Position numbers and translations under genes: made by a program. From assembly GCA_045542335.1 (NCBI GenBank), contig JAZQKV010000086.1, positions 69,348 to 133,347 on the forward strand: a stretch of DNA of 64,000 nt, in the 5' to 3' direction. Origin of the DNA: Eubacteriales bacterium (lineage in GTDB: Bacteria > Bacillota > Clostridia > Oscillospirales > CAG-382). Position 1 is the stretch's first letter. Each line of letters opens with the position of its first letter. This document shows positions 15,468-62,399 of the stretch, in pieces. Below the pieces are notes generated by a model. It searched no databases and was not told the origin of the DNA. It saw only the letters and a program-made list of their open reading frames with translations.

Positions 15468-15472
15468 ACAGT

Positions 15473-16490: not shown

Positions 16491-16522
16491 ATTATTACTC
16501 CCTTTCATGTCGCACAATGAGG

Positions 16523-18450: not shown

Positions 18451-19236
18451 ATGCTCAAAATAATAAAAACAAGACACTCATATCCCGAAAGCAAAGGGTT
18501 CTACATGAAGCGCCCCCTCGGGTGCGACGAATATGTGTTTCTGATGTTCCACACCTCAGTAGGCATTGTTCTCGACGGGAAAACCATCCGTACAAAGCCG
18601 TATGCCATGATAATTTACGACAAGCCAACACCTCAGTATTTTTTTGCCGAAAGCGACCTTGTTCACGATTGGATACACATCGACGGCGAGCTTTGCGCCC
18701 TTATGCAAGAGTGTGGGCTTGAATTTGACAAAATCTATTATCCGCTTAATCCTACAAGCGTCACCGAAACTGTTTACGCCCTCGAAACCGAGTTTCAGGC
18801 TGCCAAGAGATATAGCCGGGAGATAAGCGATAGCCTTCTTCGAACCATGCTTTACCGTGTTTCCCGTTCACTTCTTGACGGTGAACGGGATATTAACGAA
18901 AACAGTGACACAATCCGTCGCATCAGAGACTTCCGCACCGAAATGTTTTCCCATCCGGAGCGTCAATGGAATGTTGCTCAGATGGCATACTCGTCGGCAA
19001 TTTCCGAATCGCGTTTTTACGCTCTTTATAAAGATATTTTCGGGATTTCTCCCACCAAAGACCTTATCGGTGCGAGAATCGAACGGGCAAGGTTTTATCT
19101 TTCAACGGGAAAATATTCAGTCAGCGAAGTTGCAGCCCTCGTCGGATACAGCAATGTATTCCACTTTATACGGCAATATAAAGCTGAAACAGGCGTCACT
19201 CCGGGAAAAGCATCAAAGCTTAGTGAACGTGTGTGA
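18451..19236 (+). CDS. AraC-family regulator divergent from GH2-GH43
   Basis: C-terminal HTH RIERAR..L....SVSEVA..VGYSN.FHF.RQYK..TG.TP. Confidence 0.9.
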   Translation: MLKIIKTRHSYPESKGFYMKRPLGCDEYVFLMFHTSVGIVLDGKTIRTKPYAMIIYDKPTPQYFFAESDLVHDWIHIDGELCALMQECGLEFDKIYYPLNPTSVTETVYALETEFQAAKRYSREISDSLLRTMLYRVSRSLLDGERDINENSDTIRRIRDFRTEMFSHPERQWNVAQMAYSSAISESRFYALYKDIFGISPTKDLIGARIERARFYLSTGKYSVSEVAALVGYSNVFHFIRQYKAETGVTPGKASKLSERV

Positions 19237-31395: not shown

Positions 31396-32211
31396 TCAGC
31401 TAAGTTTCATATATTTCAACCATTTTGCCGAAGCTTCAACCCACGCTCTTGCGTGTTCAATTGCTTCGTTCATGGTGTTAACCTCGTCGGTACAAACCGA
31501 AAGCCCGTGTGCACCGTGAGGATAAACGTGAAGCTCAAAGTCTATGTTATTTGCACGCAAAGCCTTTGCCATATCAAGACAGTTTTCAACGGCAACAATC
31601 TGGTCTGTTGCTGTGTGCCACATGAAAATCGGGCAGGTCTTTTCACTTACATGCAGATGATTTGAGAAATACTCAAGCATTGCTGCGTCAGGCTCTGCCA
31701 CACCCGATAATAAGCAAAACCAATCCTTATGATACTCTGCCGAAACAGGTGCATAAGCAAGTATTGCCGAATCAGGCTTGATGTCGTCATTTTTTTCGTT
31801 GACAACAGCAGAAAGCTCAGGTGTATGCCATCTTGTAGAGATAAGTCCTGCGAGGTGTGCCCCTGCAGAAAAACCTATAACGCTTATTTTTTCGGGATTC
31901 ACAAATAGCCTTTCGCAATTCTTCCTTACATATGCAATCGCCTTTGCCGCATCCTTCAACGGCTTGAAAAATCCCTTTTCGTCAAGAATATCGGGAGTGA
32001 GCGTGTAAAAAAGAACAAATACATTAAATCCATGTGCAAGATATTCCTTTGCCACAGGCTCTGCTTCCCTCTTCGAAAGATGCTGATATGCGCCGCCGGG
32101 GAATATCAGCATGGCAGGTCTTCCGCCATCGGGACATTTTCTGTCGCTGATATATTCGTCTATCCAAACCTTGTCATTATCGGGATAAAGATAAGTTCTT
32201 GTGCAAATCAT
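31396..32211 (-). CDS. Alpha/beta hydrolase (acetyl esterase/lipase-like)
   Basis: PGGAY, GFSAGAHL nucleophile elbow, D..V, HG catalytic His. Confidence 0.87.
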   Translation of the reverse strand: MICTRTYLYPDNDKVWIDEYISDRKCPDGGRPAMLIFPGGAYQHLSKREAEPVAKEYLAHGFNVFVLFYTLTPDILDEKGFFKPLKDAAKAIAYVRKNCERLFVNPEKISVIGFSAGAHLAGLISTRWHTPELSAVVNEKNDDIKPDSAILAYAPVSAEYHKDWFCLLSGVAEPDAAMLEYFSNHLHVSEKTCPIFMWHTATDQIVAVENCLDMAKALRANNIDFELHVYPHGAHGLSVCTDEVNTMNEAIEHARAWVEASAKWLKYMKLS

Positions 32212-38269: not shown

Positions 38270-40279
38270 TTATTTTTTGCTCTTTTTGTCCGAGCCTGAA
38301 GCTGATGGCTTACCATCCTTTTCAATTCTTATAATTTCATCACGCAGAAAAGCGGCTCTTTCAAACTCAAGATTCTTTGATGCTTCAAGCATCTGATCCT
38401 TAAGCCTGGCAATAATTGCGGCACGCTCCTTTGCAGACAGCTTTTCGGGAGATTTTGCTCCCTTTCCCTTTCCGTCTTTGGTGGAGGAAATGTCGATAAT
38501 ATCCCTTACATCCTTGATAATTGTTTTTGGAATTATGCCGTGCGCCTTGTTATAGCTCTCCTGCTTTTCACGTCTGCGTGCGGATTCGTCAATGGCACGT
38601 TTCATTGATTTTGTTATGACATCGGCATACATTATTACGCGACCGTCGGCGTTTCTTGCCGCACGTCCTATTGTCTGAATAAGCGAAGTTTCACTGCGCA
38701 AAAAGCCTTCTTTGTCGGCATCAAGAATCGCAACAAGCGAAACCTCCGGCAGGTCAAGCCCCTCTCGCAGAAGATTGATACCAATAAGAACATCGTAAAC
38801 TCCAAGACGCAAATCACGGAGAAGCTCCATACGTTCAATTGTGTCCACGCTGAAGTGCATATAACGGCATTTTATTCCTCTGCCGCCAAGATATTCCGTG
38901 AGATTTTCCGCCATTTTCTTTGTGAGAGTTGTCACAAGAACCCTCTCCTTGCGCTCCACCCTCAAGCCTATTTCTCCAATAAGATCGTCAATCTGTCCCT
39001 CTGTGGGACGCACTTCAACAATCGGATCAAGAAGCCCTGTGGGACGGATAACCTGCTCGGCAAGAGTTTCCATGCGACTGCACTCATATTCACCGGGTGT
39101 TGCGCTGACATATATTGCCTGACCTCTCTTTGCCTCGAATTCATCAAAGAAAAGAGGACGGTTGTCATATGCCGACGGAAGTCTGAAGCCATATTCAACA
39201 AGATTTGTTTTTCTCGCCTTGTCGCCACCACTCATACCACGCACCTGAGGAAGTGTCACATGGGATTCGTCGACAAACATAAGATAATCGTCCGGGAAAT
39301 AGTCAAGAAGCGTGTACGGTGTACTCCCGGGAAGTCGCCCCGAAAGAACACGGGAATAATTCTCAACCCCTGAACAATATCCAAGCTCGCCAAGCATTTC
39401 AAGGTCATATCTTGTGCGCTCCTCAATTCTCTGCGCCTCAATAAACTTGCCCTTTGACTTGAAAAACTCCACTCTTTCAAGCATTTCCGCCTCAATTTCC
39501 TTTAATGCTCGCTCTCTCATGTCCATAGAGGTTACATAGTGATTTGCAGGATAAATCGCAACATAGCTCAGGTTCTTTATAATCTGCCCCGTCAATGGGT
39601 TGACCTCAGAAATCTTGTCAACTTCATCGCCAAAAAATTCAACTCTTACTGCTGTTGTGTTTGATGATGCCGGGAAAACCTCAACCGTGTCGCCCCTCAC
39701 TCTAAAACGGTTTCTTTCAAAAGCAACGTCGTTTCTTTCATATTGAATCGCAACAAGCCTTGCAATAAACTTATCCCTTGAAAGCTCCTGCCCCTCCCTT
39801 GCAGACACAACAAGCGATTTATACTCCATAGGGTCACCAAGGGTGTAAATGCAGGAAACCGATGCAACTATTATTACATCACGCCGTTCAAACAGCGCAC
39901 TCGTTGCACTGTGGCGAAGCTTATCAATGTCATCATTTATCGAGCTGTCCTTTTCGATATAAGTGCCGCTTCCGGGAATATACGCTTCCGGCTGATAATA
40001 GTCGTAATATGAAACGAAATATTCAACAGCATTTTCGGGAAAAAACTCCTTAAACTCACTGCAAAGCTGTGCGGCAAGAGTTTTGTTATGGGCAAGAATA
40101 AGGGTGGGGCGGTTGACCTGTGCGATAATATTCGCCATTGTAAAGGTCTTACCGGATCCTGTAACTCCGAGCAAAACCTGCTCGTTTTTGCCATTCTTCA
40201 CACCATTCACAAGTGCCTCAATCGCCTCCGGCTGATCGCCCATCGGTTCATATGGAAAATGTGGCTTAAAGTAATCCAT
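38270..40279 (-). CDS. uvrB: Excinuclease ABC subunit B
   Basis: [39 protein letters not shown]-terminal UVR coil. Confidence 0.97.
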
Positions 40280-40320
40280 AATATCTCCTTCTCCGCACCT
40301 TTATCCAACACGGCAGATTC

Positions 40321-40336
40321 ATCATAACATTTGTTT
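40321..40336 (-). promoter_or_regulatory. Possible LexA box overlapping extended -10 upstream of uvrB
   Basis: TAAC-ATTT-GTTT (2 mismatches to GAAC-N4-GTTC) overlapping minus-strand TGTTATGAT. Confidence 0.35.
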
Positions 40337-40382
40337 GTTAAAAATAGATTTCCCGCCTCTTAAATCTTTCTTAAAACGCAAA

Positions 40383-41345
40383 TTATTCAAAAAACTTGTC
40401 GCCCTGAAATGCGCCTCTTCTGTTCATTTCACGATCCACACCATTCATAACATCAAACTTTTTGACGCTCCAAAGCGGTGCAATAAGTGCATCCCTGCCA
40501 CCATCACCGGTTATTCTCTGCACAACCGTTTCCCATGGCAAAAGCAAGAGCTGATCACAAATAAGCTCAACATATTCATCAAGCTCAAAAACCGGAATTT
40601 TGCCGTCGTAAAACATATTTGCCGCCTCTGTATCCTTTAGTATGTGCAGCATATGCAATTTAACTGAATGAGGTTTTAGTTTTCCAACCTTTTCCACGCT
40701 TTCAAGCATCATTTCCCTGCTCTCGCCCGGAAGACCGTTGATAAGATGAACACAAATCCCTATTCCTCTTTGCGTCAACCTTTCATATGCGCAAAGGAAC
40801 TCATCGTAAGTGGTGCATCTGTTAATAAGCTCGCCTGTTTTGTCATGAATTGTCTGTAATCCGAGTTCAACAGTGAGATATGTTTTCTGCGAAATTTCCG
40901 TCAACAAATCAAGCACATCATCAGGTATGCAATCGGGACGTGTGGCAATGCTCATTCCCACAACATCGGGAAGCGCAAGTGCTTCGTAATAGAGCTTTCT
41001 CAACCTTTCAACTGGCGCATAAGTCCCCGTTCCTGCCTGAAAATAAGGAATAAACTTGATATTTCCATCTTTCCATTTGCCAACAAGTCCTGACTTCACC
41101 TCGTCAAACTGCTCGGAGACGCTGTTTTTCGGATTTCCTGCAAAATCTCCGCTTGCCATAGGCGAACAATAAATACAGCCGCCCTTGCCCTTTGTCCCAT
41201 CCCTGTTCGGACAGGCAAAGCCGCAATTAAGCGAAACCTTTGCAATTTTACAGCCAAAACGTGCTTTTAAATAATTGTCCTGTGTGTTGTAACGCTTGTT
41301 GTTAATTATTTCATGAGCCGGCATATTAAATACATCTTTCATCAA
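40383..41345 (-). CDS. TIGR01212-family radical SAM protein (YtqA/MnmL/YhcC-like)
   Basis: CPNRDG...GGCIYC, YFQA, TRPDC, ELGLQT, HLINGLPGE. Confidence 0.9.
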   Translation of the reverse strand: MMKDVFNMPAHEIINNKRYNTQDNYLKARFGCKIAKVSLNCGFACPNRDGTKGKGGCIYCSPMASGDFAGNPKNSVSEQFDEVKSGLVGKWKDGNIKFIPYFQAGTGTYAPVERLRKLYYEALALPDVVGMSIATRPDCIPDDVLDLLTEISQKTYLTVELGLQTIHDKTGELINRCTTYDEFLCAYERLTQRGIGICVHLINGLPGESREMMLESVEKVGKLKPHSVKLHMLHILKDTEAANMFYDGKIPVFELDEYVELICDQLLLLPWETVVQRITGDGGRDALIAPLWSVKKFDVMNGVDREMNRRGAFQGDKFFE

Positions 41346-41357
41346 ACTTGGTAAAAA

Positions 41358-41386
41358 GAGAGTGCCACAGCTTTTGCGGCACTCTC
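41358..41386 (-). terminator. Terminator after SLH anchor gene
   Basis: GAGAGTGCC...GGCACTCTC with A tract on + side. Confidence 0.7.
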
Positions 41387-41404
41387 CAAAACACTCTTTA
41401 TAAA

Positions 41405-43177
41405 TTATTCGTGATAGTCAATAACCTCATGAGGAACTGCCGCTTCTATCACATCGTAGAATCCCCAGAAGTTTTCGTCAAGATCCTTGAAAGGATTGCC
41501 CTCGTCTTCAACATATCTGTCAAGTCTTTCCTTGGAAGGAACTCTGTCAATTGCACGGTTAACAATCTTCACAGCTTCAGCTCTTGTGATGTCATTTTCA
41601 GGCTTGAATGTACCGTCGGTGTAACCGTCAACCATTCCTGCTGCCTTGAGAGCCATGATATATGCGTTCGCCCAGTGGTCTCCTGTATCGGGGAAGCTGC
41701 CATCTGCTGTAAGCTCAAGAGCAAGCATTCTGGAAATCATAACAGTGAATTCCGCACGGGTAATATACTCATTGGGTCTGAATGTACCATCGGTGTAACC
41801 GGTGATAATTCCGTTATCAGCACAGTATCCGACATATGCCGCATACCACTCGCCCTCCTTAACATCGGAAAGCTTGATCTCATATTCAGCCTTTGCATCA
41901 AAGTCTGTGGAAACCTTTGCAATAATTGCGGCTGCCTCAGATCTCTTGATGTTTGCCCCGGGCTTAACTGTTCCATCCTCGTAACCGCTGATGTAGTCAT
42001 AGTGGTAAGCCTTGTCTGCATCCTCAATGTCTGCAAACACGGGGATAAGCTTAACATCGCCGGTTATCTTGTAAGTGTCAAAGTTGATAAGTGTTTCGCC
42101 GTCAACTGTCCAACCAACAAGCTTCTTGCCCTCAGGAGGAGTGATTTCGGGAACATCCTTGGAGTTTATCTTGCTGTTTCTTTCAACTTCAACGGTAACC
42201 TTCTTCTTACCATCTTCAAACTCGCCGTCACCTGCGGTAAAATCAACATCATACTTTGTTGAACCGCCAACAACAACTGTCACACCGCTGCTGCTCTTCT
42301 TGGGAGTACCTGCAACCTGTGAGGGAACGCCTGACTCAGTGACATTGCCACCGCCGTCAACATTTACAGGAGTAATTGTTGCAACGTAGTCATCACCGTT
42401 CTTAAGTCCTGTCCACTTATACTTTCCGTCTTCCATGGGAACACGCTGTGTACCAACTTCTTCGATAGGGTTTCCGTCATCATCAACCTTTACAAGGTCA
42501 ATATCAACATATTCATAGTTGGGATCCTTTTCCCAGCCAATTGTAAGAGAACCGGAAGAAGCCTTTGTTGTTGTGGGAATAACTTCAAACGCTTCAATAG
42601 CAACGCCATCAACAAACTCGGAGTCTGCTGTCATAACTCTTGCAGGCTTGCCTACAAAATGAGCAAGCTCGGAAACGTCAGCCGCCTCTGCAAAAAGTGT
42701 GTGTGTTCTTTCCTCGGTCTCAACATGACCAAGAGTTGAAACATCGCCGTCTGCCTTGAGTGTATATGTAATTGTTGCAAGAAGAACAGCTTCTTCTGTG
42801 GCATCAACCTTTGTACCACTCTCACCATACCATGAGAATGCAATGGTTTCTCCGCCTGCAAGAACTGTTTCTGTTGCTTCTGCAACCTTCGCAACAACAA
42901 CTCCGTCTGCCGCTACAACAGTTTCAGCGAGCGTTGCCGCAGGCTCAAACTCAAGCGCTTCGTCAACAAGGTCAAGAGCAAGGTTTCCGGAAACTCCGAC
43001 CACACCTGTAAGATAAACTTCTGCGATAAGCTGCGTTGTGCCACCGATAGTCTTAACTTCGTGTGTTACATAATAGGGTTCATTTTCAGCCATTGCAGTT
43101 GTAAACAGCATACCGGAGCAAACCAGAATAAAGCTGAGAACAAGTGCAAGGATTCTCTGTGTCTTTTTCACTTTCAT
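41405..43177 (-). CDS. SLH-anchored protein: signal peptide, cohesin-like domain, FN3, InlB-B/Listeria-Bacteroides repeat, 3x SLH
   Basis: Signal peptide; SLH GY.DGT.KP...RAE x3; FN3 (LTIGW...GLKNG.DY); repeat F....G...P.IT..GK.LVGW; N-domain strand pattern like type II cohesin. Confidence 0.75.
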   Translation of the reverse strand: MKVKKTQRILALVLSFILVCSGMLFTTAMAENEPYYVTHEVKTIGGTTQLIAEVYLTGVVGVSGNLALDLVDEALEFEPAATLAETVVAADGVVVAKVAEATETVLAGGETIAFSWYGESGTKVDATEEAVLLATITYTLKADGDVSTLGHVETEERTHTLFAEAADVSELAHFVGKPARVMTADSEFVDGVAIEAFEVIPTTTKASSGSLTIGWEKDPNYEYVDIDLVKVDDDGNPIEEVGTQRVPMEDGKYKWTGLKNGDDYVATITPVNVDGGGNVTESGVPSQVAGTPKKSSSGVTVVVGGSTKYDVDFTAGDGEFEDGKKKVTVEVERNSKINSKDVPEITPPEGKKLVGWTVDGETLINFDTYKITGDVKLIPVFADIEDADKAYHYDYISGYEDGTVKPGANIKRSEAAAIIAKVSTDFDAKAEYEIKLSDVKEGEWYAAYVGYCADNGIITGYTDGTFRPNEYITRAEFTVMISRMLALELTADGSFPDTGDHWANAYIMALKAAGMVDGYTDGTFKPENDITRAEAVKIVNRAIDRVPSKERLDRYVEDEGNPFKDLDENFWGFYDVIEAAVPHEVIDYHE

Positions 43178-43250
43178 ACCTCCGTAAGAAAAAATGATTC
43201 CATGTGTCGAACAGATCCGCAAATAAAGACAATTCGACTTATACTATATC

Positions 43251-43279
43251 ATTATACTCTGAATCCACTTATTCGTCAA
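43251..43279 (-). promoter_or_regulatory. SigA promoter of SLH anchor gene
   Basis: Minus TTGACG-17 bp-TATAAT. Confidence 0.7.
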
Positions 43280-43345
43280 GTGCGAGTTGTGCACATTTGG
43301 TTAATTTTTTACGAACACAAACACAACTTCGCCCTTGATTTATCA

Positions 43346-43399
43346 TGTTTTCCACAGCGTTATGTTCCGCACTTGCCGTTCTCCATACCGCTGTGAAAA
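43346..43399. terminator. Stem-loop after giant protein gene
   Basis: TTTTC-CACAGCG-TTATG...CATA-C-CGCTGTG-AAAA. Confidence 0.55.
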
Positions 43400-43415
43400 A
43401 CTTCAATCATTATTC

Positions 43416-46400
43416 TTACTCTGCTTTGCGTCCAAAATTGCTCTTTACAAACGAGAGATCCATAACAGTTACCTCTCCGTCCTCATCAATATCAACCGCT
43501 TTAACGAATTCTTCGATTTCGCTGAGTTCTTTCGAGAAGCCTCTGATAATTCTGATAAAGTCATCAATATCAACAATGCCATCGCCACAAATGTCACCAT
43601 AATTTCCCTTGATATCACCGGCTACAAGGTCAAGTTCAAGATTATCAACAATCGTTCCGCCGATTTCGCTTGCAGAATCGTATGTCTTTATCTTCTTTGC
43701 AAGATAACCGTTCTTTTCAACAGAAACCGTGATTGCGCCCTCGGCTGTGATATCTGAAACATCAATGACATTTCCAACTTCAATGTAGTAGAGAGTCACT
43801 TCAACGCCGTCAACAGTTACTGTCTCAGACTTTGTTGCTGTGTTTTCACTCTCAATTGCAATACTCTTTACAAGAGTGCCGTCGGCAGTTCTGAATGTAA
43901 GGTATGCAGGGTTCTTTACTGCACTTTCTGTGGTTCTGTCAACATAAACCTTACCGCTTACCTTAACCTCATCCTCATTTGCCGTATATGCAATTTCATA
44001 AACATTGCCCTCTGCCGTAAGATCAGATGCGGGAATTGTTGCAACGCCGTCGATAACAGTGTATCTCTTGATTTCTGTGTCTGTGGTCTTATCCTTAAGG
44101 ACAACAGTTGAATATGTTGTTGTTACCTTAAAGCCGTCAAAGGTGAAATCTTCGCCGAGAGGATACGTCACGTTATTGTAAACCCATGTTGCGCTTGTGT
44201 CAACAATTGCTTCAACCTTACCGTCAGCAGATGAATATGCTACTATGTCTGCCGCATTTGCCGCAACTGTTGCGCTTGTTCCGTTGTTGAAGATAACAAC
44301 CTGCGTTGCAGTTGCGTTTGTGCCTCTTGCCTGAATGCCTTCGGTAATTGTACCGCCGTTCACTTCAAGAACTGCAACACCAAGCTGTGCGTTTGCACCG
44401 AGAGTGCCCGTGATGGTCTGCTTTGTATAATAACCGTCAGCATCGGGCTGCTGTGTTGCGCCGGAAGAAAGTTGTGACTGGAGATAAACTTTCTTTACTG
44501 TACCGCCGTTGATTATGCCGTGAGCATATCCGAATATGCTGTTGCGTCCGTAATCCTTAGTAGAGGCGTTATTTGCAATTACACCACCGAGAGCCATGTA
44601 ATTTGTTACATTTCCGCCGTCAACAATCAAGGTTGCAACGCCGTCAAAACGACCTGCATGAGTAATTCTGAAGTCGCTTGTATTGCCTTTAAGGATAACT
44701 GTCCTGCTTCCGCTTATTGCTTCAGCCACATTTACCGGATTGTTTTGGTTGTAATTTGCACCCGGTCCAACTACGCCTGCCGTGAAATTATTGCCAATGG
44801 TAATTGTGTTGGTAGATGGCTGCGCATCCTTGTAGTAATTTGAATGGAAAAGACGAATTGTTGAAATGCTCTTATTTATACAGTCATTATATGGAACAAG
44901 ACATTCCAAAAGCGTGCCTGTGCTTTCATTATAGTAAGCCTCGGCTTCGGTTTCGTAGTTTCTGGAGGAATTACACAGATATTCCACGCCATCAATGTTA
45001 AGTTTGCCTGTGCCGCCTATAACATTATCACCGATTGTATAATCGTAGTCCGTCGTGGGCAAAATCGGCTCCATGTTGTTTGCACCGATTGTCAACATCT
45101 TTATGTTATCAATAGTGGTATCTCCCTTGCGATAAGCCTTGAATCCTGTAACCACATAAATGGTTGAATTCTCATCAAGTCCCTTGATGGTTAAGTGTCC
45201 TGTATTTGTGGGGTGATACATTGTAACAGCATCAGTAACTATAAGCGTATAATCAGAACCGTCTTTTATCTTGGCAGATGCACTAACAATTGCGCATTTT
45301 GCGTTTTTCCATGCATATCCGTCGATTCCGGTCTTTACAACTGCATCGGCATCCTTTGTCAATGTTTCTGCCAAAGTATTTTTAATATTGTCCTTGGCAG
45401 TCTGAACAGAAGTAATAGTTACAGGGGTGAGAATTTCAAGCTTTGTTCCGAAAGGCTCCGACGGGTCATAACCGCCATCGGGAGTACCTGTCCAGTCGGA
45501 AATGTACCATACATTTGCATCCACATTCCACTGCGCCGTAAGTGTAACGTCTGCTGTCACACCGGCAATCTCATCGCCGGGCTGATAGGTTGTCTCTCCG
45601 TCGGACCAACCAAGGAACTCATACTTTGCCCCGTTGTTGAATGTGGGAGCTTCAGCAACTGTGATTGCCCCATTGTTTCCGCAGGTTGCGCTTTCGGGAA
45701 CTGTTGCATACTTATTTTCACCGTATGCATATGTTATTTCGTGTTCGATGAGATCATAAACAGCATAGAGTGTTGTTTCACCTGTTACTGTGTACTTTTC
45801 TCCGGTGTAAATCTCGCCGCCCTCGGTGAGAGACCAACCCTTGAACTCATTGATACCATCGGTAACTGTGGGTGTGGGAAGATCTGCAATAACAATATCA
45901 TTGCCCTTTTCAATGGTGATGGAATCAATCTCACTGCCGGCTGTGCCAACATTAAAGTTGACTGCAACATCCTTGTTCTTATAGGTTACAGAGCTTTCGC
46001 CTGTGCCGACTGTTGCCGCCGCAACAGTAACAGTTCCGTCAACTGTTTCGTATTCAACGCCGTCAATAACAACAAGCTCCTTGTCTGTTGTGAATACAAA
46101 GGAAGCAATTGTGTTGTCGTCTGCAAATACTGCGTCTGCACTACCGCCTGCTGCGGACTTGAGATAGTAGTCAATGTTTGCCGTTTCCACGGTATATGTA
46201 AGACCGTTGTTTATAATGAGAGCTGTGTCAAGAGTGTTGTATGTGGAGTTCTTTGCGGTAATCTTTGCAATTGCACCGCCGTTTACTATGAGAAGTGCCG
46301 AGCCGTTGATCTTACCGCTTGACTGTGCACCGACATACGCAACGCTGGTTACTCTACCACCGTTGATAACACCTCTTGCAGTACCTGTGTGAGAAGCATT

Positions 46401-49400
46401 TCCGCCGTGACCGCCTGTACCGAAGGTATGTACAGTCGCGTTGTCGAGAATGATATTTACGTCACCTGTAACCGCACAGGTATTGTAACCGGAAGCTCTC
46501 GTGTGTGCTATATTGAGTCCGGGGCTGTTGATTACAAGAGGCTTGCATTCGTTAAGAGTATATGTTCCACCACCATCTGAAAAATAGTGGATATAAAGAC
46601 CGGCAGAACGTCTTACCGTGGCACCTGTGTAGAGCTCTGTACCCGAAGTCCAGGAAGCAACAGTTGTTCCGTCTTCCTTATAGGTACAATACTGAACGTA
46701 AACCGCTGCAGGATAGTATTCAACAATATTGAAGTTGTCAAACACAACCTCCTGACCGTAGCTGCTGTAATATATCTCACCGTTGTTATTGGGAACGCCG
46801 GTAAGTTCGCCTGCCTCATACTTTGCTCTGTCGCCAAGGCGTATGGTTTTCACGCCAAGAACAACGTCTACATTCTTCCATGTGAGCTTTGCCGCATCGG
46901 AAATCTTGGAATGGTTGATATGAGTGTGCATATAGAATCTTGCACCGTCCTCAGCAGTTATGGTGACATCACCATAGCCGGCAAGAGAAGGACCGGTATA
47001 GACTGTATGCGACACATCCCCTACCATAACAATATAGTTTTCATTTGTCTTATAGGTGTCGGGGAAAGCAGTTGCAAGCTTGTCTGTTGCTTCCTTGATG
47101 GTGTTTGTGATACCAAAAGGATTTTCGGGAGTGAGACCGTTGCCTGTGCCACTGCTTGAAATGTAGAGAACATTTGCATCCTCGGGATATGTTTCCCAGA
47201 TACGCACCTCAACCTCAGAGCCTGTGTTTTCGCCGTCGGTATATCTCATGAGATAGAGACCTGCCGAAAGGCCTGTGATTTCGGTTATGCCTGCATCGTA
47301 GGATGTCCAATCGTCTGCATCATGTTTCTTGATTTCAAGAGCTTTTGATGTTGCTTCAGCAAAGGTGATCTTTGCGTCTTTGCCAAATGCCGTTGTTGCC
47401 TTTGTGACAGTGAAGTTTTCGGGAGCATCGGCAAGTACAAATTCAAACTCGTAGTCTGCAACGTTGTCAACCGAAAGAATTGCAACGTTTGTACCTGTGC
47501 CACCCTCGCCCGCCTGAGTGAGAGTGTAGCCGTAGTATCCCTCGGGAACGGTAACATTGATTGTGGGATATTCAACATTCGTTGAAAGAAGCTCAACACC
47601 GCTTATGTCGATTTCTGCCTTACCGTCCTTGATAGCAACGGGGATTTCATACCTGTAAACCGTGGGGTCAAAGTCAAATACCTGCTCAAGAGCCGCATTT
47701 TCTTCGTCTGTTGCGCCCTCGATTTCAATTGTCGCATTGATTATGGGCTCGCCTGTTATTTCGTCAACAATCGGCTCACCGCTTGCTGTGTCAACAAGTG
47801 TAATGGGGCTTACTGCGGAAATTGTCTTGTCAAGTCCCTCGGACTGTCCCCAAAGCAGGAAGAAACGAATGTCAAAAGGTGTGTTGTTATCTGTGTGGAT
47901 AATTCTGATGGTATGTTCGCCCTCGGAAAGTCCCTTTGCAAGATAATAAATCTTGTTGTTGGGGTAGGAACGGTAAATGTTTGCCGTCTGAATGGGACCG
48001 CCGTCAACGGAGTAAGCAATATTGGTACCGTTCTTGCTGTTCTGTGTACCATAGGACCATGTCCACAAACCGAGATTCTTTGAGTTGAACTTAAAGCTTA
48101 TTACGTCGCCCTCTTTGGAAGAACGGAAATACTTGCCATTGTTATCAACAACAGCATAGTTTCCAAAGCCTGCGGAATTGCCCACCGCTTCGGGAGCAAG
48201 CATGTATGCATCGGAGAGAAGCTCGCCCTTGTTGTTCTCTGTACAGTAAAGTGTCTCGGGAAGAACCTTTGCTGCGTATTCGGTTGCAGTAGGTGTGTAG
48301 CTTGTGGGAAGCTGTTCTTCGAGATAATCGATGATTGATGCAGCATAGTGTGCATAACCTGTATCATTGGGGTGAACGCCGTCAATAGTTCCACCGGAAC
48401 GCTCGAAATACTTCTTCCATGCTGCGTCTGTGGTATTAGGCCACTTGTTGCCGTTTTCTGCGTAAATTGTCTTTGCGAGCTCATGTCCTATATAAAGAAT
48501 AGGAAGATTGTAGTGCTCGGAGAGCTTTGTATAAGGTACACCATAGCTCGGAACACCGCCTGTTGAAGGGATATCCTGCTTCATTATACCGTTGTCACCG
48601 ACAACAAGGAGTACAATGTTTATCTTGGGATTTACCTTATAAAGCTTCTGGATTATAGATTCAATGTAAACATACTGCTCATCCTTGCCGTAAATGCCGT
48701 CATAGCTGTCGTTTACACACATTTCGATAAATACGATGTCGGGGCAATCGTCCTTGATAAGGTCACGGTCTGCACGGAAAATACCAAAGATAGCACCTGT
48801 ACCGCCCCAACCTGCGTTGCGTTCAACAACTGTAGCAGACGGGAATGTGGACTTGAACCAATCTCTTGTTATACCTCTCCAGGAGGTGTTGTTAGCACTT
48901 GTCGCACCTGTACCTGCGGTAACAGAGCCGCCAAAGTATCCGATAACGATTTCCTTGTCAGCCTGGAGCTTGTAAAGAGTATTTATAAGAGCCTCTGGCT
49001 TGTTCTGGTCAACGTTAAAGTTGATTGTGTAAAGAACGGTTTCGCCGTCCATGATGTATGCCTTATAGCCTGTGCCCTCAACTGTTTCGTATGTAACCTC
49101 AACTGTTTCGGGAGCAGTGCCGGAGTTGCCAAATGTAACAACAGGCTGAGCCGCACCGTAATTAAGAGCTATATTGTACTCTGTGGTATCGGCATCAAAG
49201 TCCTCGATTTCAATACCGTCGTAGTAAACCGCTGTCACGCCGAATACTGTAGTACCGCCGGTAAAGTTTACCGTTACAACAGCCTCTCCGTTGTCCTTGA
49301 TTGTGGAAACAGCATTGCCGTCGCCGTCAAGCTTGCCGTTTGTGATAACGACGTTGTCTGTATTACCCTTTGCCACAGCTGTAAGCACGGGGATAGTGCT

Positions 49401-51713
49401 TGCACCTGCAAGGTCGTAGTCATACTCTGTCACGTCGCCTATGGAAACGCCGTCAAGAAGAACATCCGTAACGGTGAAATCTCCCTCAAAATCGGAAACG
49501 TGAAGTTTTGCATCGCCGAGACTTCCGAAAAGGCCGACGTAGCCTATTTCAAATGTATCCTCAAGATGGTTTGCAACGTCATCGGAGGTGAGGTAAACCT
49601 GCCACGCTCCCATTGCACCCTTGGCTGAATAATCGTAGTAAATAACATTCCACTGATTATTTACAAGGGTGGGAGAATCAAGTGCCGTAACAAATGCACT
49701 TTCTCCTGAAACAGCATACCAACGCAAGGAGGGAAGCTGAGGAGCAGCCTTTGCCTTGGGACGTATAACAAGCTTCATAACCTTGTAATCGGTTGTCTTA
49801 TAGTCTTCTACAATACTGCCACCCGGGCAAACCTCACCTGTAGCCCACATGTCAGAGTTTTCAGCGTTGTCAAAATACTGATTACCGGGGTTGACAAGAA
49901 CATACTCTCTGCTGAAATCGTCAACCTTATTTTCTGTAAGACATCTGTGATTTTCAATGCCCTTGTAGCCTATTGACAGTTCAATAGGCTCAACCTCTGT
50001 CGTTGTCGCACCGCCTGTGAAGTTTACGGTATACAACACTTCACCGTCTTTCTCGATTGTTGCCTCTGCAGTGCCGTCTTCAAAGCTGAACTCTGTGTAC
50101 TCAACGGAAAGACCGTCGGTATTACCCTTACCTGCAAGGGTAACTGTGGGAACAACGCTTGCACCTGCAAGGTCGTATTCATACTGGGTAGTAGCGACAT
50201 CAAAGCCGGAGATTGCTGTTCCGTCTACCTTGATGCCTGTGATGCTGAGGTCACCCTCAAAGTCGGAAACGTGAGCCTTTGCATCGGCATAGTTTCCGAA
50301 AAGTGCAAGGTAACCGAAGTCTATTCTTGTATCCTCGGTGAGAGTACCTATATTGCCGGAGAATACAGTACCCATGTAGTATAAAAGACCTGCTTCAAGC
50401 ACGCCGCCTGTTTTGAAAAGGTCAGTCATGTCGTAGTATGCAACAGTCCAATCGCCTACAGTCTTTGTTTCCTTGGCATAGACAGCTGCACCGCCAAAAT
50501 TCTTGTTCATGGGTCTGAAAACAAACGCCTGAGTGTCAGTGGTCTTATAAACAGCCTTGAGAGCCTTGTACTGTGTCTGCTCTGCAGAAAGGTTTCCTCC
50601 GGGACCTACTGTCTTGGTGGCATCGGAAGAAAAGTTAGGTGTAATGCGGTGAACGGTTCTTCCGAAAATGTCGTTTTCATCAACACCGTTGTAGTATACG
50701 GCACAGTTGTTGGAAATATCACTATATGTATACTTGATGGGAAGAGGAGCTATATCGGTAAGCATTGCACCGCCTGTAAAGTTTACAGTATAAAGAACCT
50801 CGCCATCCTGCTCAATTGTAGCAATTGCAGTACCTGTCGTTGTGTCAACGTTTGTACATTCAACGGTAATACCGGATGCATCACCGCTACCTGTCAAAGC
50901 AACTGCAGGGACAGTATCCGCTTCGCCAAGATCGTAAGTATATTCGGTTGTGGAAGCGGAAAAGCCGGAAATGGCTGTACCGCCAACGGTGATACCTGTT
51001 ATGTTAAGCTCACCCTCGAAATCGGAAACATGAGCCTTTGCATCTTCAAGGTCGCCGAAATATCCTGCATAACCTATCTCAAAGGTATCACTTGTATGAT
51101 TCTGAGAAGCTTCCGATGCGTAAACATTGAACATTACGCCGTGCACACCATACTGATAATACGTTTTAAGAGCCTCTGTTGAAGTGTAAGAGTAGTATGC
51201 GGTAACCCACTTGTCTGCCTCATGAGACTTGCCCTCGTCAAACGACGCAGAGATAGTCTTTGCGGAAGTGTTCATTTCGCCGGATTCTTTATTTGCAAAA
51301 ACAGACATGGTGGGAGTAGTATCACTGGGTGACTTGTAAACAACCTTGATTACGTTGTAGTCTGCAGTCGCCTGTGTAAAGGAAGCGGGAGATACAGAAC
51401 TGCTGGGCTTGGTGGAAGCATCCGCTTCAATGATCGTGATTGTTCTTCCCAAAACATCCTTTCCCGTGGAAGCCTTTGCATGCTGGTCGTTAGCATTGGC
51501 GTGGTTGATTGAAAAATTGATGGGGGTAAGCTCTGTTGCCAGAACTTCAACCTCGGCATCTTCCTCTTTGGCTTCTTCCGTTTCGGGTTCTTCAACAACT
51601 TCTTGAGTTTCCTCAACTGTGTCCACCACTTCGGCAGCATATGCGAAAGTGTTGAAGCATGAGAAAACCATAAGCATTGTCAAAAGAATACTGAGCAATC
51701 TTCTTGTTTTCAT
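43416..51713 (-). CDS. Giant (2765 aa) secreted modular protein: 3x (CBM-like + cadherin-like) repeats, SGNH/GDSL hydrolase, two beta-helix-like regions, InlB-B repeats, C-terminal X-module + dockerin
   Basis: Signal peptide; GGSVTAG/NAGWGG/CVND/DGVHPN SGNH blocks; repeated AK.HVSDFEG...ITGI.V.G...F...T.EY; FKGWS/FLGWS repeats; duplicated EF-hand-like DGIVDIDD / DIDEDGEVTVMD...NFG. Confidence 0.8.
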   Translation of the reverse strand: MKTRRLLSILLTMLMVFSCFNTFAYAAEVVDTVEETQEVVEEPETEEAKEEDAEVEVLATELTPINFSINHANANDQHAKASTGKDVLGRTITIIEADASTKPSSSVSPASFTQATADYNVIKVVYKSPSDTTPTMSVFANKESGEMNTSAKTISASFDEGKSHEADKWVTAYYSYTSTEALKTYYQYGVHGVMFNVYASEASQNHTSDTFEIGYAGYFGDLEDAKAHVSDFEGELNITGITVGGTAISGFSASTTEYTYDLGEADTVPAVALTGSGDASGITVECTNVDTTTGTAIATIEQDGEVLYTVNFTGGAMLTDIAPLPIKYTYSDISNNCAVYYNGVDENDIFGRTVHRITPNFSSDATKTVGPGGNLSAEQTQYKALKAVYKTTDTQAFVFRPMNKNFGGAAVYAKETKTVGDWTVAYYDMTDLFKTGGVLEAGLLYYMGTVFSGNIGTLTEDTRIDFGYLALFGNYADAKAHVSDFEGDLSITGIKVDGTAISGFDVATTQYEYDLAGASVVPTVTLAGKGNTDGLSVEYTEFSFEDGTAEATIEKDGEVLYTVNFTGGATTTEVEPIELSIGYKGIENHRCLTENKVDDFSREYVLVNPGNQYFDNAENSDMWATGEVCPGGSIVEDYKTTDYKVMKLVIRPKAKAAPQLPSLRWYAVSGESAFVTALDSPTLVNNQWNVIYYDYSAKGAMGAWQVYLTSDDVANHLEDTFEIGYVGLFGSLGDAKLHVSDFEGDFTVTDVLLDGVSIGDVTEYDYDLAGASTIPVLTAVAKGNTDNVVITNGKLDGDGNAVSTIKDNGEAVVTVNFTGGTTVFGVTAVYYDGIEIEDFDADTTEYNIALNYGAAQPVVTFGNSGTAPETVEVTYETVEGTGYKAYIMDGETVLYTINFNVDQNKPEALINTLYKLQADKEIVIGYFGGSVTAGTGATSANNTSWRGITRDWFKSTFPSATVVERNAGWGGTGAIFGIFRADRDLIKDDCPDIVFIEMCVNDSYDGIYGKDEQYVYIESIIQKLYKVNPKINIVLLVVGDNGIMKQDIPSTGGVPSYGVPYTKLSEHYNLPILYIGHELAKTIYAENGNKWPNTTDAAWKKYFERSGGTIDGVHPNDTGYAHYAASIIDYLEEQLPTSYTPTATEYAAKVLPETLYCTENNKGELLSDAYMLAPEAVGNSAGFGNYAVVDNNGKYFRSSKEGDVISFKFNSKNLGLWTWSYGTQNSKNGTNIAYSVDGGPIQTANIYRSYPNNKIYYLAKGLSEGEHTIRIIHTDNNTPFDIRFFLLWGQSEGLDKTISAVSPITLVDTASGEPIVDEITGEPIINATIEIEGATDEENAALEQVFDFDPTVYRYEIPVAIKDGKAEIDISGVELLSTNVEYPTINVTVPEGYYGYTLTQAGEGGTGTNVAILSVDNVADYEFEFVLADAPENFTVTKATTAFGKDAKITFAEATSKALEIKKHDADDWTSYDAGITEITGLSAGLYLMRYTDGENTGSEVEVRIWETYPEDANVLYISSSGTGNGLTPENPFGITNTIKEATDKLATAFPDTYKTNENYIVMVGDVSHTVYTGPSLAGYGDVTITAEDGARFYMHTHINHSKISDAAKLTWKNVDVVLGVKTIRLGDRAKYEAGELTGVPNNNGEIYYSSYGQEVVFDNFNIVEYYPAAVYVQYCTYKEDGTTVASWTSGTELYTGATVRRSAGLYIHYFSDGGGTYTLNECKPLVINSPGLNIAHTRASGYNTCAVTGDVNIILDNATVHTFGTGGHGGNASHTGTARGVINGGRVTSVAYVGAQSSGKINGSALLIVNGGAIAKITAKNSTYNTLDTALIINNGLTYTVETANIDYYLKSAAGGSADAVFADDNTIASFVFTTDKELVVIDGVEYETVDGTVTVAAATVGTGESSVTYKNKDVAVNFNVGTAGSEIDSITIEKGNDIVIADLPTPTVTDGINEFKGWSLTEGGEIYTGEKYTVTGETTLYAVYDLIEHEITYAYGENKYATVPESATCGNNGAITVAEAPTFNNGAKYEFLGWSDGETTYQPGDEIAGVTADVTLTAQWNVDANVWYISDWTGTPDGGYDPSEPFGTKLEILTPVTITSVQTAKDNIKNTLAETLTKDADAVVKTGIDGYAWKNAKCAIVSASAKIKDGSDYTLIVTDAVTMYHPTNTGHLTIKGLDENSTIYVVTGFKAYRKGDTTIDNIKMLTIGANNMEPILPTTDYDYTIGDNVIGGTGKLNIDGVEYLCNSSRNYETEAEAYYNESTGTLLECLVPYNDCINKSISTIRLFHSNYYKDAQPSTNTITIGNNFTAGVVGPGANYNQNNPVNVAEAISGSRTVILKGNTSDFRITHAGRFDGVATLIVDGGNVTNYMALGGVIANNASTKDYGRNSIFGYAHGIINGGTVKKVYLQSQLSSGATQQPDADGYYTKQTITGTLGANAQLGVAVLEVNGGTITEGIQARGTNATATQVVIFNNGTSATVAANAADIVAYSSADGKVEAIVDTSATWVYNNVTYPLGEDFTFDGFKVTTTYSTVVLKDKTTDTEIKRYTVIDGVATIPASDLTAEGNVYEIAYTANEDEVKVSGKVYVDRTTESAVKNPAYLTFRTADGTLVKSIAIESENTATKSETVTVDGVEVTLYYIEVGNVIDVSDITAEGAITVSVEKNGYLAKKIKTYDSASEIGGTIVDNLELDLVAGDIKGNYGDICGDGIVDIDDFIRIIRGFSKELSEIEEFVKAVDIDEDGEVTVMDLSFVKSNFGRKAE

Positions 51714-51774
51714 GTGACATCTCTCCTGTTGTAAAATTTTTTCATTCCGAATGCAAAAGCATACAGATATAATT

Positions 51775-51803
51775 ATTATACATTAAGATGTATCAAAAGT
51801 CAA
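51775..51803 (-). promoter_or_regulatory. SigA promoter of giant protein gene
   Basis: Minus TTGACT-17 bp-TATAAT. Confidence 0.7.
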
Positions 51804-52066
51804 CAAAGAAAAAAAATTTCGGATATTGTTATAAAAATGTGCCGGCTTTTTTGTGCATATTGACAAGCACTTTTTTCTCAGAGAATTGCACATTTCCGTA
51901 CGCATTTTTCGTACACAGTCTATACACACAGAGTACAAAAAGATTGTCTTTTTTGGTCACAGTTTAGAGTAATGACATCTTTTCGATGAGAATCCGAATA
52001 AGCACATCCATTCAACAATTGCATCCGGCGATTTACCGCTTTGTTTCAAGCACGGAGACAACAGTA

Positions 52067-52095
52067 TTGACAAAAATAATGCTCTGTGGTATAAT
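52067..52095 (+). promoter_or_regulatory. Consensus extended SigA promoter
   Basis: TTGACA-17 bp-TATAAT with TG at -15/-14. Confidence 0.8.
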
Positions 52096-52131
52096 CAGAA
52101 CATAAACTTTTTGGAGAATAGTGCTGTATAA

Positions 52132-52824
52132 ATGAAAAAACAATCCGGAAACACCGGGGATTTACATAAAAATCACCGCAAACGTATGCAGAACAAAGTG
52201 CTAAACGGCGACATTGACAGTATGTATGACCATGAATTGCTTGAAATGCTGCTCTTTATTCCAATTCCAAGGGTTAACACCAATCCCATAGCTCACAGAT
52301 TGCTTAACAAGTTTGGAAGTATCCCGGAAGTGCTTCATGCCTCCGAAAGCGAACTCATAACCGTGGAAGGTGTTGGGAAAAGCACTGCAAAGTACCTCAA
52401 GTCCCTTGAAAAGCTCTTTGAAGATTTTGAGACCTGTTATCAACGTGAGCTTGTTGAACTATCAGAAACAAGTGTCGAAAAGCGTATCGACGAGATTGTC
52501 AACAATACTATTGCCGCGATAAAAGACTCAGACCCCGGCACAATGGCAATCTCTTTTCTTGGAGCAAATGGCTTGAGCAGAAAAATGTATGTAAGCAAAA
52601 GCAATGTGGTAAATTATCGTGAAGTTGTCCGCCTGTCATTGATGTACGGCATAAATTCAATTGTTATTTGCGAAAGAGTAAACGATGTTTCTTCGGCGTT
52701 AATCAAGAAAGTTGTTTCAATTCTTGAAGATGCCAACATTATGACGGTATTTGCCTATCTCGTCACAGACGGATTTTGCATCGAGCTTTTCAGCGGCGAA
52801 GTAAGTGAGCCGACAGACTATTGA
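52132..52824 (+). CDS. RadC-like protein (N-terminal HhH region intact, degenerate JAB domain)
   Basis: HRKRM, DHELLEMLL, NPIAHRLL.KFGS, EL..VEGVG; no HNHPSG motif in C-terminus. Confidence 0.75.
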   Translation: MKKQSGNTGDLHKNHRKRMQNKVLNGDIDSMYDHELLEMLLFIPIPRVNTNPIAHRLLNKFGSIPEVLHASESELITVEGVGKSTAKYLKSLEKLFEDFETCYQRELVELSETSVEKRIDEIVNNTIAAIKDSDPGTMAISFLGANGLSRKMYVSKSNVVNYREVVRLSLMYGINSIVICERVNDVSSALIKKVVSILEDANIMTVFAYLVTDGFCIELFSGEVSEPTDY

Positions 52825-52848
52825 TTCTCCCATAATAAAGTAAAAAAG

Positions 52849-52877
52849 TGCAGCTTCCGTTTCTTTTGGAAGCTGCA
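52849..52877. terminator. Bidirectional terminator
   Basis: TGCAGCTTCC...GGAAGCTGCA. Confidence 0.75.
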
Positions 52878-52921
52878 TTTTGTAATTGCCCTTTTTGAGT
52901 CACAACCTTGTTGTGCACCTG

Positions 52922-54103
52922 TTATTTTTCCTTTTTACCGTTTGTACAAGCGCTGACATTTGAACAGATATTGCAATCCCTGCAAGTGCCCTCTGCCATT
53001 TTGTATTCGCCGTCAGTTATTCCGGGGTAGTTCTTTTCGAGATATTCTTCACGGTAAGGATTTACTCCGGGCGAAACACTTTCGGGCTTGTTTGGAATCA
53101 ACCAGCTCTTTTTCTTGTAGAACGGATTTTTAAATGTGTTCTCTATGCGACCACTTTTTTCAAGAGCATTCATACAGGCACGGATACAGCCTCTTGCACC
53201 GCACACCGCAAAATAGCCCGTATGGGAGAGAATGTAGTTATAATATTCCATAACATCCGAAGTTTCGGGCTTTCTGCCCCATTTTGCAGTTGCCATGGAA
53301 TAGCAGAGAATATAAGCCTCCTCCTCGGTCATTTCGCTGTTTCGCACATCAAATGCCATGTTGGGAAATTCCTTTTTGTGGAAGGGAGAACACTCATTGT
53401 TAAAGCCGTGATGTGAAAGAGTGCATCTACCCATGCGCACATCTCCGTACCATATCTTTTTCTCGCCGAAATCCACTTCAAGACGCTTTGTTTCGTCCTT
53501 AACATCCGGCACTGCATCTCCGGGACATTCCCTTGCGCACGCACCGCAATGGATGCAAATATCGCCTGTGTCAAGGATGGGATCGGGTTCAAGCTCGCAG
53601 TCTGTGAAAATAAGACCAAGACGCACTCTCGGTCCGAACTTCTTTGTGAGGAACACCTTTGAGAAACCCACCTCGCCAAGTCCGCATCCTGCCGCAATAA
53701 GTCGCACGCTGCAAACCACATTCGGCGGCACCTTGTCGGGAGCCACAGGTTTGTTTATGGTTGAGTTTCCCTCGGGAACTGCAGGATAGTGCGCAACCGC
53801 TTCCCAGCCATGGTCCTCTATGAAACAGCAAAGCTCATAGGATTTTTTTGGGCGAAAAAGCGAGTTTAATTTGTTGTAGGAATAAAAAGTATAGTTGTGC
53901 CAATGAGTGCCCTCCTCAATGCCTCTGTATGTACCTCGGGGGATTCTCATGGCAACGGCAATAACGGATTTTGCTTCGGGGAAATAAGTGAGGGGATTCA
54001 TAAGCTCGGGGGCGTTTTTAAAACGTTCCACATTACCTATAGCGATGCAGTCCAGACCTATTTCTGCCGCCTTATCCTTTATCATCTGTGATGTAAGCTT
54101 CAT
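52922..54103 (-). CDS. QueG/reductive-dehalogenase-like 4Fe-4S protein (paralog 2)
   Basis: FPEAKSVI, AAGCGLGEVG, FGPRVRL..IFTD.EL.PD, CIHCGAC..ECP, C...GC...C. Confidence 0.75.
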   Translation of the reverse strand: MKLTSQMIKDKAAEIGLDCIAIGNVERFKNAPELMNPLTYFPEAKSVIAVAMRIPRGTYRGIEEGTHWHNYTFYSYNKLNSLFRPKKSYELCCFIEDHGWEAVAHYPAVPEGNSTINKPVAPDKVPPNVVCSVRLIAAGCGLGEVGFSKVFLTKKFGPRVRLGLIFTDCELEPDPILDTGDICIHCGACARECPGDAVPDVKDETKRLEVDFGEKKIWYGDVRMGRCTLSHHGFNNECSPFHKKEFPNMAFDVRNSEMTEEEAYILCYSMATAKWGRKPETSDVMEYYNYILSHTGYFAVCGARGCIRACMNALEKSGRIENTFKNPFYKKKSWLIPNKPESVSPGVNPYREEYLEKNYPGITDGEYKMAEGTCRDCNICSNVSACTNGKKEK

Positions 54104-62310: not shown

Positions 62311-62399
62311 GGAGAGGTATCGAAGTGGTCATAACGGGGCTGACTCGAAATCAGTTTGCGAGCAATCGCACGCGGGTTCGAATCCCGCCCTCTCCGCCA
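62311..62399 (+). tRNA. tRNA-Ser(CGA)
   Basis: Acceptor GGAGAGG/CCTCTCC, anticodon arm GCTGA-CTCGAAA-TCAGT, long variable arm TGCGA-GCAA-TCGCA, GGTTCGAATCC T-loop, G discriminator + CCA. Confidence 0.95.

Follow-up and report, generated by a model that had tools for sequence, protein, structure and literature searches.

In a 64,000-nucleotide window (the whole stretch of DNA analysed, from contig JAZQKV010000086.1 of a Eubacteriales bacterium), two neighbouring genes encode a giant secreted protein of 2765 residues that ends in a type II-like X-dockerin and a second protein, here called the anchor, that carries a 170-residue N-terminal module (the N-domain) and three surface-layer homology (SLH) repeats. 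We favour the view that the two form an anchoring pair in the style of CipA and SdbA, with a non-cellulosomal cargo and with a divergent family of cohesins providing the socket. What is new here is probably that a single giant, non-cellulolytic cargo is held by an SLH anchor through a type II-like X-dockerin, together with a socket family that escapes the family models. Both genes lie on the minus strand, the giant-protein gene upstream and the anchor gene downstream (open reading frame (ORF) list), and all of the peptides that a preliminary description of this DNA had quoted for them are present: SVEKNGYL and LVAGDI...DGIVDIDDFIRIIRGF...VDIDEDGEVTVMDLSFVKSNFG in the first, and QLIAEVYL, GNLALDLVDEALE, TIAFSW and EEAVLLATITYTLK in the second. 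The genes, and the parts of the giant protein on which the argument turns, are as follows.

43416..51713, minus strand: giant-protein gene, 2765 aa, with an ATG start at 51713 and the ribosome-binding site AGGAGAG at 51727-51721
51636..51713, minus strand: signal peptide of the giant protein, residues 1-26, ending ...FAYA before AE, read from the translation
43614..43868, minus strand: X-like module, residues ~2616-2700, with the VEKNGYL motif, aligned with the X module of 4wi0_B
43437..43601, minus strand: dockerin, residues 2705-2759, Pfam PF00404 (Dockerin_1)
41405..43171, minus strand: anchor gene, 588 aa from GTG 43171, with the ribosome-binding site GGAGG at 43183-43179

The C-terminus of the giant protein is, as judged from its sequence, a type II-like X module immediately followed by a dockerin, in keeping with the CipA pattern that the preliminary description had seen there. 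Pfam assigns Dockerin_1 both on the full-length protein (E 8.7e-8; 32.7 bits, cut-off 22.9) and on the tail alone (E 3.8e-9). The second calcium loop, DIDEDGEVTVMD, reads as canonical. The first, DICGDGIVDIDD (window 43566-43601, minus strand), is non-canonical, with an insertion after its initial GD and a Cys at position 3, where Asn or Asp is usual in dockerins; this Cys is conserved in 14/16 of the family C-termini, and the X module is conserved across the 16 that were aligned. When a profile of 15 X-dockerin C-termini (A3) was compared with the PDB, the only matches at E <= 1e-3 were 4wi0_B (6e-6) and 4u3s_B (1e-4), in alignments that run through the X module and span both dockerin repeats, while a single-sequence search adds 5k39_B (E 1.3e-3) amid many calmodulin EF-hand matches. 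According to the accessible text of PMC5141474, 4u3s and 4wi0 show the X-dockerin of A. cellulolyticus ScaA in complex with a ScaB cohesin, 5k39 shows that of C. thermocellum CipB with a type II cohesin, and all three are type II X-dockerins on cohesins of anchoring or adaptor scaffoldins; the reading of the giant C-terminus as X-dockerin II-like therefore holds at the sequence level. The ScaA X-dockerin is the nearest solved relative (E 1e-4 with the single sequence, 6e-6 with the family profile). Unlike it, the window family has the insertion and the Cys in the first calcium loop; identity is low, and ScaA is a cellulosomal scaffoldin.

This C-terminal segment recurs widely. A search with the last 194 residues for longer proteins sharing them (2705 candidates) yielded 15 proteins of 406-1987 aa, and in 15/15 the shared segment ends no more than 12 residues from the C-terminus. 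Its bipartite consensus is VKNGYL in the X module and then LVAGDIKg..eCGDGxIDIDDFIRVLRGF...AVDINEDGxVNVxDLxxIKxNFG. The proteins that bear it are diverse by their Pfam labels (GH3 with CBM35, BNR/sialidase-like, GDSL and Listeria-Bacteroides repeat proteins), and because it sits at the C-terminus of such different proteins it behaves as a shared docking tag. The same segment stands out in P0015, an orthologue collinear with the giant protein (37% identity over 1969 aligned positions), where the dockerin is the best-conserved part at 61%, the other BLAST-aligned parts fall at 26-55%, and the X module and Flg repeat region gave no BLAST alignment. Co-divergence of the docking interface was considered as a further line and rejected, as the dockerin proved the most, and not the least, conserved part in this comparison. 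A tblastn search of plasmids with the X-dockerin gave no match. As the preliminary description had stated, the giant protein is secreted and lacks a wall anchor of the common kinds: a Pfam and motif scan of its 2765 residues found no SLH repeat and no LPXTG-like motif, and its signal peptide is its sole hydrophobic window.

The product of the downstream gene has the architecture that had been proposed for it, an N-terminal domain followed by FN3 and three SLH repeats, with a further repeat between the last two:

43088..43171, minus strand: anchor signal peptide, residues 1-28, ending ...TAMA before EN, conserved in homologues
42578..43087, minus strand: N-domain, 170 aa, divergent cohesin-like module and proposed X-dockerin socket
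42341..42568, minus strand: FN3, Pfam E 0.011 (below cut-off), family profile 3e-13 against fibronectin FN3 structures
42035..42253 (approximate), minus strand: Listeria-Bacteroides (Flg_new-like) repeat, placed by alignment to P0004, in which PF09479 has E 2.2e-5
41408..42007, minus strand: three SLH repeats and C-terminal tail, Pfam PF00395 E 1.3e-36 in 3 stretches

All three SLH repeats are present, and the anchor family profile matches the Sap SLH structure 3pyw_A at 9e-25. The longest ORF for this gene is 41405..43222 (minus strand), 605 aa, which opens with TTG 43222, and an alternative ATG lies at 43177. GTG 43171 is the likeliest true start, because GGAGG stands 7 nt upstream of it, homologues begin MKKT, and the database record P0003 is 588 aa long. 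In having an N-terminal module and then SLH the protein matches SdbA, as had been claimed, so far as SdbA is described in the accessible portion of PMC4045903.

The N-domain is not confined to this protein. The proteins examined were gathered by similarity to the SLH repeats or to the X-dockerin, and the counts given here hold for that set. A full HMMER search with the window N-domain over 1.84 billion representatives gave 6 matches at E <= 1e-3, among which P0004 is the sole true homologue, the remaining five being repeat proteins in which 2-29 short stretches were matched; of the 4870 candidates of a word-indexed search two were kept, including P0003, the anchor itself. Searching with the SLH part retrieved 5184 SLH proteins. 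Among the 120 listed, P0026-P0031, P0033 and P0036 match the anchor in length and in the whole architecture, as does P0004, which makes nine other SLH proteins in all with the complete anchor layout (profile A4, of full-length anchors), and their N-domains can be aligned though they are 22-32% identical to that of the window. In P0034 the module is followed directly by SLH (hidden Markov model (HMM) independent E-value (iE) 2e-17; hhalign probability 97%, E 7.5e-11). At least 10 of the 120 listed SLH proteins are relatives of the anchor, and the SLH relatives with a named organism among those listed (n=8) come from Oscillospiraceae (3), Clostridia/Clostridiaceae (3), Bacillus testis (1) and Paenibacillus sp. 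(1).

N-domain-like modules also stand directly upstream of the X-dockerin in 2/15 of the X-dockerin proteins, both of which had originally been picked up through the X-dockerin and not through the N-domain: P0023 has two (residues 863-1188, iE 5e-4 and 3e-7; hhalign probability 91%) and P0024 has one (residues 1224-1336, iE 1.4e-6, after one HMM iteration). The family thus has at least 14 modules, spread over 13 proteins: the anchor of the window, 10 further SLH proteins and 2 that bear the X-dockerin. As the module is found ahead of SLH or ahead of an X-dockerin, it stands where anchoring and adaptor scaffoldins have their cohesins. We found no description of this family in the literature searched, which does not prove that none exists. 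The N-terminus of an additional SLH protein, P0052 (residues ~30-160), aligns with the family as well (hhalign P 0.0019 over 117 columns). Cohesin-like motifs are visible there, and P0052 might be one more divergent representative.

These distributions bear on the number of partners involved. The preliminary description spoke of a two-gene system and the adjacent pair is indeed there, but the term is probably too narrow, since the same X-dockerin is borne by 15 other proteins and two of these carry N-domain-like modules. One possible alternative, to which we give about one chance in three, is therefore that the pair is part of a multi-tier assembly in which several anchors are shared by many dockerin enzymes and adaptors, the adjacent anchor serving the giant protein among others. 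The variety of proteins with the same tag argues for it, as do P0023 and P0024, which resemble adaptors in combining cohesin-like modules with an X-dockerin, and the numerous anchor homologues; the proteins that support it come from other sources, however, and the whole 64-kb window holds one X-dockerin and one N-domain. Such an assembly would refine the tethering-pair reading and does not contradict it. Were it true, SLH anchors built of N-domain, FN3, repeat and SLH would hold adaptors like P0023 and P0024, as well as giant SGNH esterases, GH3 proteins and sialidase-like BNR proteins. More broadly, and tentatively, the N-domain may be an unrecognised cohesin family that, with one type of X-dockerin, serves non-cellulosomal multi-tier surface display in uncultured Clostridia.

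Whether the two proteins are partners at all depends on the nature of the N-domain. Several weak but concordant lines, four in number and none of them decisive, suggest that its family is cohesin-like, and the window's own N-domain may accordingly have the cohesin fold, a nine-stranded jelly-roll beta-sandwich. The N-domain of the homologue P0034 (residues 25-200), used in place of the window domain, was compared with the ESM Atlas, where 24/30 of the nearest clusters by language-model features carry PF00963 (Cohesin); the best of these has a score of 0.92, with 182/256 features shared and Cohesin in 99% of its members. By predicted structure, 5 of the 10 Atlas rows shown carry Cohesin, at TM 0.52-0.59, and for the whole of P0034 SLH clusters make up 20/30 of the nearest, with Cohesin in 45-48% of their members. 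A more diverse profile of the N-domain family (A6) retrieved 2 PDB sequences at E <= 10, and first of 177,635 was 4dh2_A, whose database title is 'Cellulosome anchoring protein cohesin region' and which we take to be OlpC. The match has E 0.59, to be read beside the Pfam-confirmed cohesin protein P0046, whose matches to the classical cohesins 1ohz_A and 1anu_A have E-values no better than 0.11 and 0.27.

Direct profile alignment points the same way. With 200 real 150-aa segments of other proteins in the set as controls, hhalign aligned A6 with cohesin 2 of P0046 (Pfam Cohesin E 9e-29) at a score of 28.0 (P 7e-4, 100 columns; 0/200 controls reach it) and with cohesin 1 at 23.2 (P 0.005; 1/200 controls reaches it, namely P0052, which seems cohesin-like too). 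The register of the alignments is constant, placing xVYLxG...G...YD..L of the N-domain onto VPVYLD...G...F/YDP.vL of the cohesins, GxIAFxW onto GllsvaW and vLIATv onto lfTihFKV. The profile of the N-domain only (A5) scored 19.6 against a four-cohesin alignment (P 0.03), which 0/200 column shuffles reach, and a cohesin HMM places the family member P0036 next below the true cohesins, at E 0.043. Profile A4 also matched 2w1n_A (E 1.1e-4, over N-domain and FN3), presumably the C. perfringens NagJ Coh-FN3 construct; A5, which lacks FN3, misses it, so this match is not independent evidence and was rejected.

A number of results weigh on the other side. PF00963 matched in 0/12 of the family proteins scanned (the window anchor and P0004 at E <= 10; P0026, P0027, P0028, P0030, P0031, P0033, P0036, P0034, P0023 and P0024 at E <= 1), whereas the control SLH-cohesin proteins P0046, P0060 and P0065 match it at 9e-29, 1.5e-7 and 1.8e-5, and NCBIfam returned nothing relevant on the N-domain. 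The earlier identification of the N-domain as a cohesin thus stands for the family's resemblance and falls short on the family model. In PDB sequence searches A6 ranks 4dh2_A first, at an E-value that is not significant alone, and no cohesin was retrieved with the window domain, P0004, A2 or A5. The hhalign comparisons of A6 with P0060, P0065 and P0084 gave no signal (39, 65 and 153 of 200 controls reach their scores), and profile-profile comparisons with small cohesin alignments were weak (P 0.03-0.09; 0.05-0.09 with larger sets). The Atlas evidence concerns P0034 and not the window protein, and its two top rows by structure are non-cohesin, Big_3 at TM 0.68 and Cu_amine_oxidN1 at TM 0.65. 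As for the locus, separate promoter-like sites precede the two genes, so that co-regulation is not established, and the adjacency of giant protein and anchor was seen in one genome only. A genome-contig scan with the anchor gave 41 related loci, the source genome not among them, and 0/41 contain the N-domain or X-dockerin: the anchor matches there only through its repeat/SLH part (residue 309 or later), local HMMs of both modules run on all ORFs of the 41 loci and the window found only the window's own genes, and Pfam detected 0 cohesins in 29 SLH ORFs from those loci.

Taken together, these points could mean that the X-dockerin is functional with another cohesin elsewhere in the genome as its partner, that the N-domain is a beta-sandwich with some other role, for which contact with a ligand, a glycan or the S-layer might be suggested, and that the adjacency is coincidental. 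The missing PF00963 match, the non-cohesin structures at the top of the Atlas rows, the single sighting of the adjacency, the separate promoter-like sites with a stem-loop between the genes, and the fact that 64 kb of the genome is in view all suit this explanation. We nevertheless regard it as unlikely, at roughly one chance in five, given the predominance of cohesin among the nearest Atlas clusters, the cohesin that ranks first in the PDB, the hhalign match to a confirmed cohesin, the SdbA-like layout and the recurrence of N-domain-like modules beside the same X-dockerin in P0023 and P0024. If the N-domain were not a cohesin, the locus would merely hold an ordinary dockerin protein beside an ordinary SLH protein. 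Still less probable, at about one in ten, is an orphan dockerin without any cohesin, a calcium-dependent stabilising or carbohydrate- or wall-binding tail on a giant protein that is released or attached otherwise, which would suit the non-canonical first calcium loop and the many rumen dockerin proteins that are non-cellulosomal (158/649 have CAZy modules, in the accessible text of PMC6487960) and which is made less likely by the conservation of the tag, by its place at the extreme C-terminus of 15/15 relatives with very different catalytic parts, and by cohesin-bound type II X-dockerins being its only PDB relatives by profile.

In the tethering-pair reading that we prefer, the anchor would be exported and fixed to a wall polymer by its three SLH repeats, and FN3 and the Listeria-Bacteroides repeat would act as a spacer that holds the N-domain, as a highly divergent cohesin, off the wall. 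The giant protein would be exported separately, lacking a wall-binding signal of its own, and its X-dockerin would then plug into the N-domain of the anchor, presumably in a calcium-dependent manner. This would display at the cell surface an SGNH acetyl-esterase-like module together with ~2000 residues of repeat modules that have no family assignment.

Non-cellulosomal cohesin-dockerin systems, reportedly surveyed by Peer et al. in 2009, resemble this arrangement in placing the modules on enzymes unrelated to cellulose, NagJ being an example. Such pairs are already known, as are a broad non-CAZy dockerin cargo in the rumen and a minimal adjacent pair. A close parallel is the CipA system of Clostridium thermocellum with its anchors SdbA, Orf2p and OlpB, which likewise combines a large secreted X-dockerin protein with anchors that have an N-terminal module and C-terminal SLH repeats. 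In the cipA operon the anchor genes olpB, orf2p and olpA lie downstream of cipA, so that a big X-dockerin gene precedes an anchor gene in the same order as here (as given in the accessible part of PMC4045903). Unlike CipA, the cargo described here is neither a multi-cohesin scaffoldin nor a carrier of cellulases, and unlike the CipA-system anchors, the window protein has an N-domain that the Pfam Cohesin model misses, a spacer of FN3 and Listeria-Bacteroides repeat, and a gene with a promoter-like site of its own, as has the giant protein. The same portion of PMC4045903 describes SdbA as one type II cohesin with SLH, and OlpA and OlpC as one type I cohesin with SLH that hold single enzymes. 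The last two are thus similar to our anchor in being SLH proteins with one cohesin for individual dockerin enzymes; they differ in binding type I dockerins that lack an X module, and the sequence relation to the N-domain is the non-significant one given above. A proven heterodimer encoded by adjacent cohesin and dockerin genes, again with a divergent cohesin, is ClcC/ClcD of Cellulosilyticum lentocellum (PMC13487519, accessible text). There, in contrast to the present pair, ClcC has a CBM3 and, so far as that text goes, no SLH and is therefore cell-free, ClcD is a GH5 cellulase, and both genes stand under one predicted promoter.

Several consequences would follow. If the N-domain is a cohesin that the models do not detect, censuses based on PF00963 undercount such systems, and if it works as one, partners may exist for many of the 'orphan' dockerins that non-cellulolytic enzymes carry. 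The pair would then be a compact model of how one very large enzyme or adhesin can be displayed with no scaffoldin involved, and would add an orthogonal plug-and-socket for the engineering of protein display.

The remainder of the giant protein consists of repeats around one recognisable enzyme module:

49014..51368, minus strand: three internal repeats of ~260 aa each, residues ~116-900
48258..48971, minus strand: SGNH/GDSL esterase module, residues 915-1152
47892..48131, minus strand: beta-sandwich past the esterase, residues 1195-1274, weak CE2_N match at E 2.2e-4, below cut-off
45531..45737, minus strand: Listeria-Bacteroides repeat region, residues ~1993-2061, E 1.3e-5, just under cut-off

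Pfam PF13472 matches residues 927-1121 above its cut-off (E 2.3e-12), and the catalytic motifs are in place, with GGS of block I at 928-930 (Ser930) and DGVH of block V near 1111; the family model, the catalytic Ser and the Asp-x-x-His together place the module among the SGNH/GDSL hydrolases. The only PDB relative of this part is 6hfz_A (E 4.5e-15 over residues 915-1152), which is RiCEX, a two-domain 2-O-acetyl-mannan esterase of Roseburia intestinalis with SGNH and CBM35 domains (bioRxiv 10.1101/788067, accessible text). The two agree in having an SGNH domain followed by a beta-sandwich; RiCEX is a protein of 372 aa, whereas here the module is embedded in a surface protein of 2765 aa. Its substrate may likewise be an acetyl ester. 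For the ~260-aa repeats no confident family was found, the weak match being Cadherin-like at E 0.46. Residues 1754-1874 resemble residues 2378-2512 in an internal duplication. The long stretch of residues ~1300-2615 (window 43869-47813, minus strand) has as its only family match the near-cut-off Listeria-Bacteroides repeat and looks beta-helix-like by eye.

The transcription signals were as follows.

51775..51803, minus strand: sigma-70-like promoter site of the giant-protein gene, TTGACT-17-TATAAT, 11/12, a consensus match only
43251..43279, minus strand: sigma-70-like promoter site of the anchor gene, TTGACG-17-TATAAT, 11/12, a consensus match only
43347..43401, minus strand: stem-loop with a 13-bp outer stem, directly past the giant-gene stop, without a U-tract

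Each gene had been credited with its own SigA promoter, and an 11/12 site does lie upstream of each; the scanned region, however, contains 27 promoter-like sites, where shuffles give 18.1 +/- 3.5, and any one such site is by itself weak evidence. The stem-loop that had been placed between the genes was recovered at 43401..43347. The 193-nt spacer folds with z = -3.0, and 1/200 shuffles folds equally well. Rfam gave no match over 40000-53000 at E <= 0.1, and GC content is uniform over the region. Downstream, 59 nt (41346-41404) separate the anchor stop from the start of a radical-SAM gene on the same strand, and a scan of this gap found no terminator-like site; transcription from the anchor gene may therefore possibly read through into housekeeping genes.

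The 43 other ORFs of the window that were scanned are mostly housekeeping (Spo0A, UvrB, LeuRS, FtsY-like, PBP), together with a GH43, a GH2 and several AraC regulators, and the presence of Spo0A places the organism among endospore-forming Bacillota. The preliminary description was right that neither a cellulase nor a multi-cohesin scaffoldin is encoded here: a cohesin, dockerin or cellulase family was found in 0 of these 43 ORFs, and the combination that defines a cellulosome, a multi-cohesin scaffoldin with dockerin cellulases, does not occur within the 64-kb window. A second SLH protein (window 10958-14389, minus strand, 1143 aa) has three SLH repeats, the best Pfam stretch at residues 321-363, an N-terminal domain of ~200 aa and a C-terminal part of ~700 aa, the last two without assignment and the latter beta-helix-like by eye. 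Neither it nor the giant protein contains an N-domain-like module, and a BLASTP comparison of the two gave nothing meaningful (best E 0.012). A glycan-use cluster at 14507-19236 comprises GH43 (15606-16526) and GH2 (16523-18235) with AraC-type regulators on its flanks, and a gene for a BD-FAE-type esterase lies at 31396-32211. Near the far end of the window, a tRNA-Ser (anticodon cga) at 62311-62399 (plus strand) is close to a phage-type integrase gene at 62727-63920 (minus strand; Phage_integrase E 2.2e-16), and the two may mark the border of an integrated mobile element extending beyond the window.

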